Shown here in pieces: positions 36,858 through 64,000 of a stretch of DNA of 64,000 nucleotides. A program made the translations under genes and the position numbers. The stretch is from the NCBI GenBank assembly GCA_964252075.1, contig CAXULY010000001.1, positions 1 to 64,000 of the forward strand, in the 5' to 3' direction. Position 1 is the stretch's first letter; each line of letters starts with the position of its first letter. This DNA is from an uncultured Deinococcaceae bacterium (lineage in GTDB: Bacteria; Deinococcota; Deinococci; Deinococcales; Deinococcaceae). The notes below the pieces were generated by a model. The model was given only the letters and a program-made list of their open reading frames with translations. It was not told the DNA's origin and searched no databases.

Positions 36858-36907
36858 AGCGGTGAGGGTCAGGCGAAGCGCCCGCGCTTCGCCTGACCCT
36901 CACCGCT
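36858..36907. terminator. 23-bp perfect inverted repeat between convergent genes
   Basis: agcggtgagggtcaggcgaagcg-cccg-cgcttcgcctgaccctcaccgct; overlaps the vWA gene stop codon. Confidence 0.75.
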
Positions 36908-38930
36908 TGTACCGTTCGAGGCTCTGCTTGTCGCGGATGCGCACCTGGTACGGTCCGGCGGCGGTGCTGAGGTCCAGCATGACCGCGAGCGGCAGGGCCT
37001 CGCCCGGACGGAAGGCGCGCGAGATGTGCCGCAGGTGCATGGCGCCCTCCAGGGCGCGCAGCCGCAGGAGGCCCGGCTCGCGGCGCACCACGAGGCCCCG
37101 CAGGGCCTCCACCTGAAAGACGTCCGCGAGGTCCACGTCGTCGAGCGGCAGTTCGAGGTCCGTGCCGTGCGCGCCGTCCAGCAGCGTCACGATCACCTCG
37201 ATGGGCGGCTCGGGCGGCTGGGCGGGCCGGGGGCGCCGGACGGGGGGCGGCGCGTAGTCCGTGAAGACGTACAGCTGCCGCAGCGCGAGCGTCTCGGCGA
37301 GTTCCAGGAACACCCCTTCGTCCTGCCCGAACTTGTGCAGGCGCAGGGTGTCGGGTTGCGCCTGCAGGCGGGCGGCGCGCCGCGCGCGCTGCGCGGTGTA
37401 CTCCTTGACGCTCGTCATGTCGCTGGTGTCCAACACCACTTCGTTCTCGTCGGTGATGTCGGGCCGGTAGCGTTCGATCACGAGGCCCTGCAGGCGCCGC
37501 ACGCGGAAGAGCCGCCCGATGTCCGTCCGGCCGCGGCGCAGGAAGGCGGACACGCGTTTGCCCTGGCGGTCATGCAGGTACACGCGCAGCGAGCGGTCCA
37601 CGCTGAGCGCCCAGGGGTCCACGCGGCGGCGCGCCCAGCCGATGAGCAGCAGCAGGGCGAGCAGCAGGAGCAGCGCGAGGAGCAGCCACCACCACGGGAA
37701 GGGCCGCACGAGGACGCCCGTGAAGGGCGGCACCTTGAAGGGCGTGCGGTCGTTCAGACGCAGGGCGGGCGCGGCCTGCGCGCCGCCGGGCAGCGTGACG
37801 TTCGTGACGGTCAGGTCGGTGGTTTCGCCCTCGAGGAGGCTCACGGTTTCGTCCGGGAGGGCGGCCTTTAGCTCGGGGGGGACGGTCTGCACCTGCGCCG
37901 TCACGGGGCCGCCCACCGCCTTGTAGTGCAGCACGGCGCGCTGACCGGGGCGCAGCACGCGCAGCACGTCCGGGTTCAGGAGGCGCAGCGTGCCGAGCAG
38001 GGTGTCGGGCACGCCGGGCGCGGCCTTCTCGCCGGGGCGCCTTGGGGTGTCCTGGTCGAAGCGCAGGATCACGTTCTGGCTCGCGCCGGGCAGCACGGCG
38101 CACATGTACCCGACGCTGCCCGCCGCGACGGTGCCCTGGATGTTGAGGTTCACAGCCTCACCGCGGCCCGTGGGGTTCCGGATGCTCACGCTCGCGCCGC
38201 CGATCTGGTCGGAGTCGAGCTGCAGGCGCGTGCCGTCCGGGTGGCGGTAGGGGAAGCTGCCCTGCGGCCCCACCGTGAGCAGGGCGGGCGTGAGGTTCAG
38301 CCCGGTGAAGTCCGGCGTCTGGTGCACGGGCAGTTCGACGGCCTGCGCGAAGTTCGTTTCGCGGAAGCGCGCCTTCACGTTCGCTGGGACGCGCGTGCCG
38401 AGCGCCACGTAGTACAGCTTGTCGAAGGGGCCGCGCGACACGTTGAACGCCCCCAGCGCGCTCTCGATGCTCGCCTCGTGCGAGGGGTCGTTGTCGATGC
38501 CGTCCGTCACGACGTACACGGTGGTGGCGTAGTCATCGCGGCGCGTCAGGACGCCGAAGATGCTGACCATCGAACGGTACAGCCAGGTGTTCGCGCCGTT
38601 CGCCTGCAGGGTGTTCACGGTCCGCTCGAACTCCGCGCGTTCCTGCGGCCACTGGAAGCTCGCGCGCTGCTGCGGCCCGCGGTCGAAGGTCTGCAGTTCC
38701 ACGCTGCCAGGCGCGGTGGTGGCGCGCATACCGCGCACCATGGCGCCCTTCACGGCGGAGAAGATGTTCGCCACGCTGTCCCCTTTGCCCGCCATGGAGC
38801 CGGACGTGTCCAGCAGGAACACCACGCGGGTTTTCGTGGGGGGTGGGCTGAAGGGCAGGGTGCAGTCCTGCTGGGCGAGGACGCTGGAGGTGAGGAGGGC
38901 CACCAGCAGCAGCACGACGCGCGCGATCAT
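36900..38930 (-). CDS. vWA-domain single-pass membrane protein
   Basis: Signal peptide, MIDAS VFLLDTSGSM...T...VVTDG, TM segment PWWWLLLALLLLLALLLLIGW, and a ~240-aa cytoplasmic tail. CATAAT lies 6 nt before ATG 38930. Confidence 0.85.
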   Translation of the reverse strand: MIARVVLLLVALLTSSVLAQQDCTLPFSPPPTKTRVVFLLDTSGSMAGKGDSVANIFSAVKGAMVRGMRATTAPGSVELQTFDRGPQQRASFQWPQERAEFERTVNTLQANGANTWLYRSMVSIFGVLTRRDDYATTVYVVTDGIDNDPSHEASIESALGAFNVSRGPFDKLYYVALGTRVPANVKARFRETNFAQAVELPVHQTPDFTGLNLTPALLTVGPQGSFPYRHPDGTRLQLDSDQIGGASVSIRNPTGRGEAVNLNIQGTVAAGSVGYMCAVLPGASQNVILRFDQDTPRRPGEKAAPGVPDTLLGTLRLLNPDVLRVLRPGQRAVLHYKAVGGPVTAQVQTVPPELKAALPDETVSLLEGETTDLTVTNVTLPGGAQAAPALRLNDRTPFKVPPFTGVLVRPFPWWWLLLALLLLLALLLLIGWARRRVDPWALSVDRSLRVYLHDRQGKRVSAFLRRGRTDIGRLFRVRRLQGLVIERYRPDITDENEVVLDTSDMTSVKEYTAQRARRAARLQAQPDTLRLHKFGQDEGVFLELAETLALRQLYVFTDYAPPPVRRPRPAQPPEPPIEVIVTLLDGAHGTDLELPLDDVDLADVFQVEALRGLVVRREPGLLRLRALEGAMHLRHISRAFRPGEALPLAVMLDLSTAAGPYQVRIRDKQSLERYKR

Positions 38931-39049
38931 GCCCGGATTATGCCGTGCCGCGCGCGGGGCCGTTCGGTGAGAGACCATGAGGGAGGTGTGAAACAGCTCA
39001 TGCCGTTCGCGCCGCCCGTTGCGGTACGGTGGGCAGAGCGAGGTATGCC

Positions 39050-62033: not shown

Positions 62034-63620
62034 ATGCCCGAGTATCTGTCGCCAGGCGTTTACATCGAAGAGACCTCGTCCGGTCCACGTCCCATCGAGG
62101 GCATCAGCACCACGACGGCCGCCTTCATCGGATTTGCCGCGAACGGACCGGCGAACACCCCGGTGTTCATCGCCAACTGGACGCAGTACCTGGAGAACTT
62201 CGCCGCGCGTGACGCCGACGGCACCTACCAGGCGTACCTGGACGGCGCCTACCTCGCGCACTCCGTCTACGGCTACTTCAACAACGGCGGTACGCGCTGC
62301 TACGTGACGCGCCTCGTGCCGCCCCAGAAGGACGCCAAGACCGGCAAGACGGTCGACATGCCCAAGACCCTGCAGCTCCCGGCGCGCGCCTCCAAGGCCG
62401 TGTCGTCCCTGACCATCGGCTCCAAGGGCAGCCCCACCAGCGACATCAGCGTGGACATCCAGCCGCCCGCCCCGACCGAGCAGGAACCCAACCCGCAGGA
62501 AGGTACGTTCACCATCCGCGTGAAGCAGGACAACCACGAGGAAGTCTTCGACAACGTCTCCATCGCCAAGAAGCACCCCCGCAACGTCGCGGAGGTCATC
62601 AACCAGCAGAGCACCCTCATTGAGGTGGTGGAGCAGAGCACCGTCGGTTCCCTCGCGGAGCGCACCCCGGAGTTCGGGAACTTCGTCATTCACTCCACCA
62701 TGACGCCCACCGACGGTGGCCTCATGGTGAAGAGCAACGACTTCATCGGCAGCGTCCACGACCGCAGCGGCATCGACGGCATGGAAGTCGCCGAGGACGT
62801 CAGCATGATCTGCGCGCCGGACCTCATGAGCGCCTACCAGAATGGCCTCCTCGACGAGATGGGCGTCAAGGCCGTGCAGCGCGCCATGATCGACCACTGC
62901 GAGCGCAACCACAACCGCATCGCGATCCTCGACCCGCTGCCCGACCTGAACCCGCAGCAGGTGAAGCGCTGGCGCGAGCACGAGACGAACTTCGACTCCA
63001 GCTACGCCGCCGTGTACTACCCGTGGATCAAGATCAACGGCCCGGACGGCAAGCCGCTCCTCGTGCCGCCCAGCGGGCACGTCGCGGGCATCTACGCTCG
63101 CAACGACGTGGAGCGCGGCGTGCACAAGGCGCCCGCCAACGAGGTGGTGCGCGGCGCGCTCGACCCCGCCATGCAGATCACCAAGAGCGAACAGGACATC
63201 CTGAACCCCATCGGCGTGAACTGCATCCGCACCTTCACTGGCATGGGCATCCGCGTGTGGGGCGCGCGCACCCTCTCCAGCGACGCCCGCTGGCGCTACG
63301 TGTCCGTGCGGCGCCTGTTCAACTACGTGGAGAAGAGCATCGAGCGCGGCACCCAGTGGGCGGTGTTCGAGCCGAACGACGACGAGCTGTGGGCGAAACT
63401 CCGCCGCGACGTCACGGCCTTCCTGACCATCGTGTGGCGCAGCGGCGCGCTGTTCGGCAAGACCGCCGGCGAGGCCTTCTACGTGAAGTGCGACGCCGAA
63501 CTGAACACCCCGGAAGTGCGCGACCTCGGCATGGTGTTCATCGAGATCGGCATCGCGCCCGTGAAGCCCGCCGAGTTCGTGATCTTCAAGTTCAGCCAGT
63601 ACGCCGGCGGCGGCTCCTGA
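62034..63620 (+). CDS. contractile tail sheath protein
   Basis: MPEYLSPGVYIEE, GYFNNGG, AVYYPWI, PPSGHVAGIYAR...GVHKAPAN, VWGARTL, YVSVRRL, VFEPND and APVKPAEFVIF. Confidence 0.96.
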   Translation: MPEYLSPGVYIEETSSGPRPIEGISTTTAAFIGFAANGPANTPVFIANWTQYLENFAARDADGTYQAYLDGAYLAHSVYGYFNNGGTRCYVTRLVPPQKDAKTGKTVDMPKTLQLPARASKAVSSLTIGSKGSPTSDISVDIQPPAPTEQEPNPQEGTFTIRVKQDNHEEVFDNVSIAKKHPRNVAEVINQQSTLIEVVEQSTVGSLAERTPEFGNFVIHSTMTPTDGGLMVKSNDFIGSVHDRSGIDGMEVAEDVSMICAPDLMSAYQNGLLDEMGVKAVQRAMIDHCERNHNRIAILDPLPDLNPQQVKRWREHETNFDSSYAAVYYPWIKINGPDGKPLLVPPSGHVAGIYARNDVERGVHKAPANEVVRGALDPAMQITKSEQDILNPIGVNCIRTFTGMGIRVWGARTLSSDARWRYVSVRRLFNYVEKSIERGTQWAVFEPNDDELWAKLRRDVTAFLTIVWRSGALFGKTAGEAFYVKCDAELNTPEVRDLGMVFIEIGIAPVKPAEFVIFKFSQYAGGGS

Positions 63621-63699
63621 ACCCCCTTGCAGCCTGACACGCAGCCGTTAGACTCAGCGTGAACCTCACCCACCGCCCGCACTCACAGGAGGACCGAGC

Positions 63700-64000
63700 A
63701 TGACCGTACCGCACAAAGACCCGTTGGTGGCCGCCTACTTCGCCGTTGATTTCCAGAACGGGGTGCAGGGCGCCTTCCGCGAATGCACCGGCCTGGGCTC
63801 GGAGAGCCAGGTCGTGGAGTACCGCGCGACCGACGAGCGCGGCAAGCCCGTGCTGATCCGCGAGCCCGGCACCATGAAGTACACGGACATCACCCTCAAG
63901 CGCGGCATCACGGACAGCATGGACATGTGGCAGTGGCGCCGTCAGGTTGAGGACGGCGACATCGAGGGCGCGCGCCGCAGCGGCACCATCACGCTGTACA
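63700..64000 (+). CDS. tail tube protein, T4 gp19-like (truncated by window end)
   Basis: AGGAGG RBS and ATG 63700; MTVPHKDPLVAAYFAVDF...GAFRECTGL...PGTMKYTDITLKRG...WQWR...RRSGTITLY. Absent from the track because there is no stop codon in the window. Confidence 0.93.
   Translation, partial: MTVPHKDPLVAAYFAVDFQNGVQGAFRECTGLGSESQVVEYRATDERGKPVLIREPGTMKYTDITLKRGITDSMDMWQWRRQVEDGDIEGARRSGTITLY

Follow-up and report, generated by a model that had tools for sequence, protein, structure and literature searches.

We examined a 64,000-bp stretch of DNA (the window; positions 1-64000 of contig C1 of a 5.8-Mb Deinococcaceae genome, GC content about 70%) that encodes most of a tail-only contractile injection system (CIS). 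As a whole this machine is already known, because a 2026 paper in ISME J describes its lineage with imaged particles (PMC12998442). What is new is a conserved module at the position of CisA or of the tail fibres: a baseplate protein, Cis12, that carries a forkhead-associated (FHA) domain, and a bitopic (pseudo)kinase with an FHA domain of its own, encoded by the next gene. This pair appears to be undescribed. Its gene content, domains, topology signals, motifs, synteny and co-occurrence are established by the observations below. We conclude, with moderate confidence, that the system is a cytoplasmic-type CIS of subtype IId, related to the cytoplasmic CIS (cCIS) of Streptomyces and without tail fibres, in which the pair forms a CisA-like, FHA-based membrane trigger-adaptor that is not permanently docked.

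Genes were named with Pfam and NCBIfam, true reading frames were picked by third-position GC (GC3), and the downstream 19 kb of the contig was analysed as well. The CIS occupies positions 48187-64000 of the window and extends to contig position 71501, with the following genes:

48187..49845, minus strand: VgrG-related spike (Cis8; NF033848, E 3.2e-96; Phage_base_V, E 2.2e-27)
49846..50421, minus strand: tube initiator (CIS_tube, Cis7-like; PF19266, E 4.9e-30)
50462..54928, minus strand: bitopic protein of 1488 amino acids (aa) with Pkinase, FHA and immunoglobulin-like (Ig-like) domains (Pfam, NCBIfam)
54925..55809, minus strand: FHA-Cis12 baseplate wedge, 294 aa (FHA, E 8.3e-12; Tail_P2_I, E 9.6e-13; TIGR02242, E 1.4e-24)
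55806..57992, minus strand: baseplate J / Cis11, longest open reading frame (ORF) (TIGR02243, E 1.1e-116)
57827..58246, minus strand: gp25-like sheath initiator (Cis9; GPW_gp25, E 2.2e-25)
58396..60450, minus strand: AAA+ ATPase (Afp15/Cis15-like; AAA, E 1.9e-24; WHD, E 5.5e-09)
60481..61356, minus strand: Pvc16/DUF4255 cap, the tail terminator (Pvc16_N, E 3.6e-26)
61308..61601, minus strand: PAAR spike tip (PAAR_motif, E 2.4e-22)
62034..63620, plus strand: contractile sheath (Cis2; Phage_sheath_1 and Phage_sheath_1C)
63700..64000, plus strand: gp19-type inner tube, truncated where the window ends (gene 63700-64146 in full; Pfam)
contig 64825-65274, sheath-side operon: second tube, after small ORFs (Pfam)
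contig 65368-70299, sheath-side operon: eCIS_core/DUF4157 protein, 1643 aa (Pfam)
contig 70311-71501, sheath-side operon: 396-aa ORF, the last of the operon

An initial annotation, made from the letters of the window, had proposed a complete tail-only gene set in two divergent operons, with a baseplate operon running gp25, baseplate J, FHA wedge, receptor, tube initiator and VgrG through tight junctions. The family matches in the window and the downstream contig bear out the first point and the coordinates the second: baseplate J and cis12 overlap by 4 nt, as do cis12 and the kinase gene, and the tube initiator and VgrG genes abut. The start of Cis11 probably lies near 57820, abutting gp25, because tblastn alignments of homologues begin near residue 52-59. 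Sheath, tube, gp25, baseplate J, VgrG, PAAR, Pvc16/DUF4255 and AAA ATPase, the core set of the extracellular CIS (eCIS) superfamily, are all present in this single locus.

The same annotation had asked whether head genes, or TssJLM and ClpV genes of a type VI secretion system (T6SS), might lie just beyond 64 kb. We looked as far as contig position 82000, and none appeared: Pfam and NCBIfam recognised no capsid, terminase or portal among the genes of window 36900-64000 or contig 64001-82000, and in the same two regions, the rest of the genome being unsearched, there was no TssJLM, TssBC, TssK or ClpV. The sheath is a single Phage_sheath_1 protein rather than TssBC. No ORF of the locus matches a tail-fibre (Afp13-like) family, and the slot after cis12, where eCIS encode their tail fibres, holds the kinase-FHA membrane protein. 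Pfam recognised no lysis gene within or beside the cluster and no PP2C phosphatase or second kinase in it, and a promoter and terminator scan of the divergent intergenic region (61500-62100) returned 0 sites.

The 294-aa Cis12 consists of the FHA domain (residues ~10-100), a Pro/Thr-rich linker and a P2 gpI-like core (~140-294), and has a weak match to the NCBIfam family CIS12_fam. In the S. coelicolor CIS the core has a match in chain 9gtp_E, which is 190 aa long and has no FHA domain. A profile search returned 378 FHA-Cis12-like proteins at E <= 1e-10, of which the best 120 all carry both Pfam domains; the named sources among the listed proteins are Deinococcus, Ktedonobacteraceae, Roseiflexaceae and Chloroflexales. 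In FHA domains the Ser of the S-x-x-H loop contacts phosphothreonine. The Cis12 FHA fails a test for the phosphothreonine-binding motif: GR is kept, the Ser is replaced by Ala ('IAIRHAE') in 34 of the 35 Deinococcaceae loci, and the NG loop is variable. The loops are canonical, with the Ser kept, in the loci of Thermogemmatispora and of two other Deinococcota families, f4 and f5.

The 1488-aa protein begins with a pseudokinase domain (residues 33-313), followed by a canonical FHA domain (361-442), two cytoplasmic Ig-like domains (443-700) and the single transmembrane (TM) helix given by hydropathy (704-725). Its outer part is made of seven Ig-like repeats of ~76 aa with Pro-rich linkers, and ends in a C-terminal avidin-like beta-barrel. 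RefSeq names the protein 'FHA domain-containing serine/threonine-protein kinase', and its matches to TagH-type FHA families of NCBIfam are weak, falling below the cut-off (E 6.4e-10 and 1.8e-05). The kinase fold keeps the Gly-rich loop, the Lys and Asn of the catalytic loop ('LKPEN'), DFG and SPE. In the catalytic test the window protein failed: the VAIK Lys is Arg ('ALRV') and HRD is 'HGN', with the Asn and DFG kept, in agreement with its first description as a pseudokinase with a TM segment. The receptor's FHA loops are canonical (GR / SRHH / NGT), and the GR, S, H and N positions are invariant in 8 of 8 homologues. Mean column identity over the cytoplasmic part is 60%.

AlphaFold2 (AF2) models residues 443-700 as two Ig-like sandwiches (pLDDT 82), for which the best folds are the FixG-related 2r39 (Z 11.2, rmsd 2.7, 106 residues aligned) and a macroglobulin MG domain (Z 10.8); these matches appear to be generic to beta-sandwiches. 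The C-terminal ~100 residues are modelled as an eight-stranded barrel (AF2, pLDDT 87), and a wide VIA search matched the barrel to zebavidin 4bj8 (Z 12.7, rmsd 1.7, 92 aligned) and to the Cap15 barrel (Z 12.1). A Foldseek search of the PDB with the C-terminal ectodomain gave no match at E <= 0.001. A modelled avidin-like fold does not by itself demonstrate a ligand. Two Cys of the C-terminal domain are invariant in 8 of 8 homologues, which fits an extracytoplasmic location of the barrel. A complex prediction for receptor residues 35-700 with FHA-Cis12 returned no answer (score 0.00), which speaks neither for nor against a contact.

Two variations in the kinase-FHA gene may be recorded here. 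Window positions 54835-54928 encode a Thr/Asp/Pro-rich N-terminal extension of ~31 residues, absent from 7 aligned homologues, that holds T-x-x-D spacings of the type bound by some FHA domains. In genome G015 (L018 3671-8478) the gene is present as two overlapping ORFs, 767 aa cytoplasmic and 899 aa outer, split near the TM helix, and either a frameshift or a true two-gene form might account for this.

Conservation of the kinase-FHA gene in homologous loci, on which the initial annotation had made its reading depend, is borne out. Full-length homologues were found in 9 genomes when 40 relatives were searched, and 8 of the 10 examined loci have the order FHA-Cis12, kinase-FHA, tube initiator, VgrG; paralogues without a CIS make up the remaining 2. 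A scan of 364 Deinococcota genomes gave Cis12 matches in 50, with FHA and core both covered in 48, namely 35 of 125 Deinococcaceae (window counted), 10 of 19 genomes of f5 and 3 of 68 of f4. Family f2 (128 genomes) contributed 2 matches, to the core only, in long FHA-less proteins. Within the Deinococcaceae the kinase-FHA gene is present in 34 of the 35 loci and lies directly downstream of FHA-Cis12 in 32. It is found 1.5-2.1 kb downstream of cis12, after an inserted photolyase-like gene, in G062 and G101, and no kinase-FHA gene was found within 9.4 kb downstream of FHA-Cis12 in G113, a draft that is 84% complete. Kinase-FHA follows FHA-Cis12 in both of the examined f4 loci and is present in 9 of 14 f5 loci, one of the remaining 5 ending at a contig edge.

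The pair also occurs in a second phylum. Cis12 matches turned up in 54 of 401 sampled Chloroflexota genomes, one of them (G591) to the core only. Among the 24 loci examined, 20 have FHA-Cis12, and kinase-FHA is directly downstream in 13 of these 20, with none within 1.5 kb in the other 7. No adjacent kinase was present in the FHA-less Cis12 loci examined (2 in Deinococcota, L154 and L155, and 4 in Chloroflexota). A Thermogemmatispora metagenome-assembled genome (L028) has a full colinear cluster ending in FHA-Cis12 and kinase-FHA-Ig-TM, in which an outer beta-propeller replaces the Ig stalk. This was the one locus with a CIS among 80 found by a separate kinase-alignment search, whose patterns fell on generic kinase motifs and so brought up mostly unrelated kinases. 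Two species studied in the lineage paper also have the pair. In D. grandis a syntenic cluster on plasmid pDEGR-1 includes it. In D. aquatilis the first 450 residues of the protein match, without a difference, the kinase-FHA that adjoins FHA-Cis12 in the colinear cluster of G051, so this species carries the pair too.

Several loci depart from the common plan. The photolyase/cryptochrome-like insert (L156 14693-16033 in G062; L157 12739-14091 in G101; DNA_photolyase, E 3.5e-24 and 1.2e-22) might feed a light or UV signal into the module, or might have landed there by chance. Several of the f5 genomes G148-G155 have two FHA-Cis12 loci of distinct sequence types, one usually with the kinase gene and the other mostly without it, or with three small ORFs between (G155). 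On pDEGR-1 of D. grandis sheath, tube, Pvc16 and gp25 occur a second time, in pieces, between the sheath and baseplate operons (L104 9270-12700), and this set is a decayed partial duplication of the cluster; in the same locus the FHA and core of cis12 match as two separate pieces. In Thermogemmatispora the kinase gene is directly followed by a BTAD/Trans_reg_C regulator and a 1189-aa TIR-NTPase-TPR protein (L028 14363-19697); BTAD regulators are said by Geller et al. to be associated with eCIS.

The catalytic residues of the kinase differ between the two phyla, as follows:

Deinococcaceae (32 loci with data): VAIK position Arg in 32 of 32; HRD is HGN in 25 and HGD in 7; DFG in 32 of 32
f4 (2 loci): VAIK position Arg; HRD is HGD or HAD; DFG is NFG
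f5 (9 loci): VAIK Lys in 8 of 9; HRD Asp replaced by Glu or Gln in 8; DFG variable
Chloroflexota (13 loci): VAIK Lys in 13 of 13; HRD in 11 of the 12 loci covering the motif; DFG in 12 of 12

The Thermogemmatispora homologue has all four of the VAIK Lys, HRD Asp, catalytic-loop Asn and DFG Asp. Judged by these motifs, the kinase looks active in Chloroflexota and is predicted to be catalytically dead in nearly all Deinococcota loci examined. We rejected the stronger statement that every Deinococcota kinase is dead: the f5 locus L145 keeps the Lys, the HGD Asp and the DFx Asp (DFS), and its kinase may be active. In the receptor's own FHA the GR, SxxH and NG motifs are retained at nearly every locus. 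Degeneration of the Cis12 FHA parallels the loss of the kinase in Deinococcaceae (Ser to Ala in 34 of 35). From these motif states we infer that an ancestral contact was phospho-dependent and that in Deinococcaceae it would have become phospho-independent or reliant on other kinases.

The relationships of the machine are consistent with a cytoplasmic CIS. The best solved relative of the sheath is 8bky/9gtp, aligned over its full length (residues 1-527, E 9e-158, 529 bits), followed by 8bl4/9gts; 9GTP and 9GTS are the S. coelicolor CIS models from the CisA paper (PMC12237407). The organism had been described as Deinococcus-like, and a tblastn search of a plasmid collection with the 1488-aa protein agrees, 5 of 5 matched records being Deinococcus: psychrotolerans (58%), taeanensis, aquaticus, actinosclerus and grandis pDEGR-1. 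The main text of the lineage paper places a Chloroflexota/Deinococcota CIS clade within subtype IId, alongside the Streptomyces cytoplasmic CIS, and describes members in Roseiflexus, Calidithermus, D. aquatilis and D. grandis (PMC12998442). Our own assignment to subtype IId would follow from that placement together with sheath and Cis12 similarity, and not from a tree of our own. The window system belongs to the same lineage, in that D. grandis pDEGR-1 and the D. aquatilis-identical genome carry syntenic clusters with the pair.

According to the same main text, sheaths were purified from D. grandis and D. aquatilis, the D. aquatilis particles are 365 nm long and by cryo-tomography lay in the cytoplasm without attachment, C. 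chliarophilus particles likewise lay free there, and the authors argue for a cytoplasmic mode of action (PMC12998442). Two points of the initial annotation are therefore not supported: that it knew of no characterised system with such an architecture, since the lineage is published with D. aquatilis tomograms, and its suggestion that the machine is docked at the membrane, since the unattached particles were seen in a species that carries the pair. The pair itself does not surface there: apart from its figures (including the gene map of Fig. 3C), which were not covered, the main text contains neither 'FHA' nor 'kinase', and one supplement mentions phosphoglycerate kinase only (PMC12998442). A search of one collection of papers, judged by title and abstract, for literature joining FHA domains or kinases with eCIS or cCIS found none, the injection-system results being T6SS papers or reviews and the remainder treating unrelated subjects.

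The closest functional parallel comes from Streptomyces. As its report describes it, CisA is conserved in Streptomyces IId loci, has a bitopic topology whose N-terminus is cytoplasmic, is missing from purified particles, is needed for contraction and has a predicted contact with Cis11 (PMC12237407). The window system resembles the Streptomyces CIS-Sc in its closest solved sheath, its short P2-gpI-like Cis12, its lack of tail fibres, and in having a bitopic membrane protein with a cytoplasmic N-terminus encoded directly after the baseplate genes (PMC12237407). Unlike the 1488-aa protein, CisA is largely unstructured in its cytoplasmic part, its outer domain is substrate-binding-like, and it has no kinase fold or FHA, neither of which the paper mentions (PMC12237407). 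The Deinococcus Cis12, unlike that of Streptomyces, itself bears an FHA domain, and the likeness to CisA that we draw is one of position and topology. Roseiflexus, according to the main text of the lineage paper, has no close cisA homologue (PMC12998442).

Two further systems offer partial precedents. Like the threonine-phosphorylation pathway of the T6SS (PpkA, Fha/TagH, PppA), the locus joins a membrane protein with a Hanks-type kinase fold, and FHA domains, to a contractile machine. In that pathway PpkA and Fha exert phosphorylation-dependent control of the T6SS. The locus differs from it in having no TssJLM/TssBC/ClpV or phosphatase, in that its FHA is fused to a baseplate wedge protein and not to a TagH-like one, and in the dead kinase of Deinococcaceae. 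In mycobacteria the membrane protein MviN uses a cytoplasmic pseudokinase domain to recruit the FHA protein FhaA. MviN-FhaA regulates cell-wall synthesis and is unrelated to injection systems, and is a mechanistic precedent only.

Binding, a triggering role, the signal and the direction of firing are what we infer in the following model. Six copies of the Cis12 FHA would be displayed where fibres normally attach, and the single-pass membrane protein of the next gene would be the functional counterpart of Streptomyces CisA. Particles would assemble free in the cytoplasm; upon an envelope or stress signal the receptor would capture the baseplate via FHA-mediated contacts, and this capture would set off contraction at the membrane, expelling the Tme-like, DUF4157-family nuclease effector described below. 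In Chloroflexota the contact is probably phosphorylation-dependent, as with PpkA-Fha of the T6SS, because the kinase appears catalytically intact there. In Deinococcaceae, because the kinase is predicted to be dead and the Cis12 FHA has no phosphothreonine-contacting Ser, the pair is probably a phospho-independent scaffold, or relies on other kinases acting through the receptor's intact FHA. The 'signal-gated' CIS of the initial annotation is likewise a conjecture; in the window organism the kinase is dead and the baseplate FHA has lost that Ser.

Several observations weigh against this model. The unattached particles were imaged in D. aquatilis, which bears the pair (PMC12998442, main text), and therefore any contact with the receptor would be transient or conditional; a transient, CisA-like membrane contact is possible. 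The receptor-baseplate contact is itself only predicted. A dead kinase together with a degenerate baseplate FHA could mean a decaying module, an idea we disfavour because conservation of the cytoplasmic part is strong. The pair is not obligate, at least in cis: FHA-Cis12 stands without a neighbouring kinase in 7 of 20 Chloroflexota loci (judged within 1.5 kb), 5 of 14 f5 loci and 1 draft Deinococcus genome. Finally, an FHA-less paralogue, with no CIS genes in the surrounding 20 kb, is present in a genome (G017) in which no FHA-Cis12 was found. This paralogue (L022 13028-16747; also L023) has a more decayed kinase (no DFG) and no FHA, and retains the cytoplasmic Ig-like part, the TM helix, the Ig-repeat stalk and the Cys barrel. 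Because it shares the stalk and barrel, we take the ectodomain to be a general Deinococcus sensor module, of which the FHA form is the CIS-linked one.

A bolder reading, which we hold only tentatively and think rather unlikely, is that an inside-out receptor has taken the place of the tail fibres. A (pseudo)kinase spanning the envelope would sense the outside via its variable ectodomain, and would offer a phospho-epitope or a docking surface to the six FHA domains at the baseplate rim; engagement of these FHA domains, rather than fibre binding, would fire the tail. The ectodomain would be an Ig stalk with an avidin-like barrel in Deinococcus and a beta-propeller in Thermogemmatispora. If true, no phage-tail-like machine outside the T6SS would have had a phosphopeptide-gated trigger before this one, and nature would here have fossilised an active signalling pair into a structural pair.

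It is also unlikely, in our judgement, that the kinase-FHA protein is a regulator rather than an adaptor, that is, a T6SS-like signalling hub for CIS assembly or expression that never holds the baseplate, with the Cis12 FHA reading the marks of other kinases. The catalytically competent look of the Chloroflexota versions would suit such a hub, as would the receptor FHA with its GR, SxxH and NG kept in nearly all loci, the other Hanks-type kinases of the genome (G000 C7, C23 and C31), and the FHA-Cis12 loci without an adjacent kinase. However, the Deinococcaceae kinase could not be the writer, with its K to R change and, in 25 of 32, D to N; the gene is nevertheless retained at 34 of 35 loci. 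The cluster has no PP2C phosphatase or second kinase, and the position of the kinase gene directly after cis12, with the two genes overlapping by 4 nt, suggests stoichiometric co-production with a structural protein.

A constitutively membrane-anchored, T6SS-like machine, such as the initial annotation had in view, with the receptor as assembly platform and the tail firing outward into neighbours, is improbable. The protein does span the membrane and has a long external stalk, and a PAAR/VgrG spike is present along with nuclease effector families typical of antibacterial weapons, but the D. aquatilis and C. chliarophilus particles are described as unattached in the cytoplasm (PMC12998442, main text), the regions searched (window 36900-64000 and contig 64001-82000) hold no TssJLM, TssK or ClpV recycling ATPase, and the nearest solved relative is the Streptomyces cytoplasmic CIS. 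Equally hard to credit is an ordinary extracellular CIS released by lysis, with kinase-FHA as a passenger or a lineage-specific regulator without a role in firing: the core gene set equals that of eCIS (Afp/PVC) and DUF4157 toxins are a hallmark of eCIS loci (PMC8213781), but no tail-fibre or lysis gene was recognised in or beside the cluster, the kinase-FHA gene shows synteny at the tail-fibre position in two phyla, and the main text of the lineage paper argues for cytoplasmic action (PMC12998442).

The baseplate operon converges on a putative effector and several accessory genes:

39029..45655, plus strand: putative Tme-like / DUF4157-family CIS effector, 2208 aa (Pfam, hydropathy, homologues)
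45659..48171, plus strand: five small ORFs after the effector (HEAT-like 167 aa, DUF6966 150 aa, 133 aa, 231 aa and a 144-aa two-TM protein)
36900..38978, minus strand: vWA membrane protein, 692 aa (VWA_2, E 4.5e-08)

The 2208-aa protein has, in order, a conserved N-domain (~45-310), a Lys/Ala-rich disordered stretch, a ~550-residue coiled coil, a Gly-rich hydrophobic TM region (1016-1063), Pro/Thr-rich linkers, an Endonuclea_NS_2 domain (1380-1459, E 7.5e-11) and ~750 C-terminal residues, in two regions, without a family. The initial annotation had called it a 'multi-warhead' toxin. This is plausible but only partly shown, because Endonuclea_NS_2 is the single toxin domain recognised in the window protein. 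Pfam did not detect DUF4157 in it; in 5 of 8 large homologues examined, the N-domain is homologous to the region before DUF4157, with eCIS_core following directly. The C-termini of the homologues vary (Ntox15, AHH nuclease, a sub-threshold NlpC/P60 match). A search of the ESM Atlas with the effector C-terminus scored best, at 0.85, for a GH-E nuclease cluster, which is a lead only.

The proposed link between this toxin and the CIS was upheld. Homologues of effector residues 1-1250 occur in 24 of 125 Deinococcaceae genomes, 22 of 35 CIS-positive vs 2 of 90 CIS-negative, counts that overstate independence because the genomes are related. In 6 genomes (window counted) a homologue lies 8-10 kb from cis12, beyond VgrG. 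The N-domain alone, scanned with a less strict filter than residues 1-1250, was found in 17 of 125 genomes, 15 of them CIS-positive, and an N-domain search for longer proteins found nothing at E <= 1e-5, which is weak evidence. One CIS-positive genome, G013, has 13 dispersed N-domain copies in proteins of ~700-1300 aa, four with in-frame TAG; these copies are a large polymorphic DUF4157 family within one genome.

DUF4157 toxins mark eCIS loci (PMC8213781), and Tme is a CIS-loaded endonuclease effector of S. davawensis (PMC11126660). The window effector is like Tme in size (2208 vs 2247 aa), in being mostly disordered or coiled-coil, in its predicted TM helices and in its DNA/RNA non-specific endonuclease domain (PMC11126660), and like the DUF4157-marked eCIS toxins in that the N-terminal module of its homologues includes DUF4157 (PMC8213781). 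It differs from both in having no detected DUF4157, in the ~750 residues of no assigned family past its nuclease domain, and in that its gene lies outside the structural operons, convergent on VgrG. Judged from its sequence, the protein probably belongs to the DUF4157-marked eCIS toxin family and is very Tme-like in build.

The five small ORFs, of which the 133-aa one failed the GC3 filter, are candidate immunity or accessory genes by position only. Hydropathy gives the vWA protein an N-terminal signal or anchor, an external vWA domain, a TM segment (421-453) and a cytoplasmic tail of ~240 aa. Apart from the window's own, just 10 Deinococcaceae genomes encode a full-length orthologue, and each of them is CIS-positive and belongs to the window's subclade. 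The orthologues adjoin an effector homologue in G056 and G081, lie inside the cluster in D. psychrotolerans and 0.2-22 kb from cis12 in G085, G046, G062, G101 and G133 (3-22 kb in the last four), and are unlinked in G013. The idea that the vWA protein is a universal component was rejected, since only an N-terminal paralogue is present in the other 86 genomes with a match; the protein is a subclade-specific accessory, not a core part.

Downstream of the second tube, the 1643-aa DUF4157 protein occupies the tape-measure position. It is 20% Ala and 16% Pro, has no TM segment, carries a HELTH motif near its C-terminus and contains an exact-like internal duplication of ~105 residues (around 480-590 and 1030-1135). 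Its homologues measure 593 aa in Thermogemmatispora, 1259 aa in D. grandis and 1831 aa in D. psychrotolerans, and these large differences might go with the unequal lengths of particles that are on record in the lineage.

Both flanks of the cluster consist of housekeeping genes, with methylmalonyl-CoA mutase and fatty-acid oxidation genes on the left and, past 71501 on the right, a polyketide cyclase, an OmpR-type response regulator and succinyl-CoA ligase (sucCD). Farther off, window 8642-16475 encodes an AcrB-type RND efflux pump together with two outer-membrane efflux proteins and a TetR regulator, an ordinary set unrelated to the CIS.

For the Streptomyces cytoplasmic CIS, CisA is the only known firing factor. 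The FHA-Cis12 and kinase-FHA pair, which we favour as a membrane trigger-adaptor, offers a genetically testable molecular handle on how cytoplasmic CIS are triggered, and Deinococcus strains that carry it are culturable and have already been imaged. The link of the N-domain/DUF4157 family with CIS-positive genomes helps to define the cargo of the lineage. The gradient from active to dead kinases between the two phyla is a natural experiment on enzymes turning into scaffolds.

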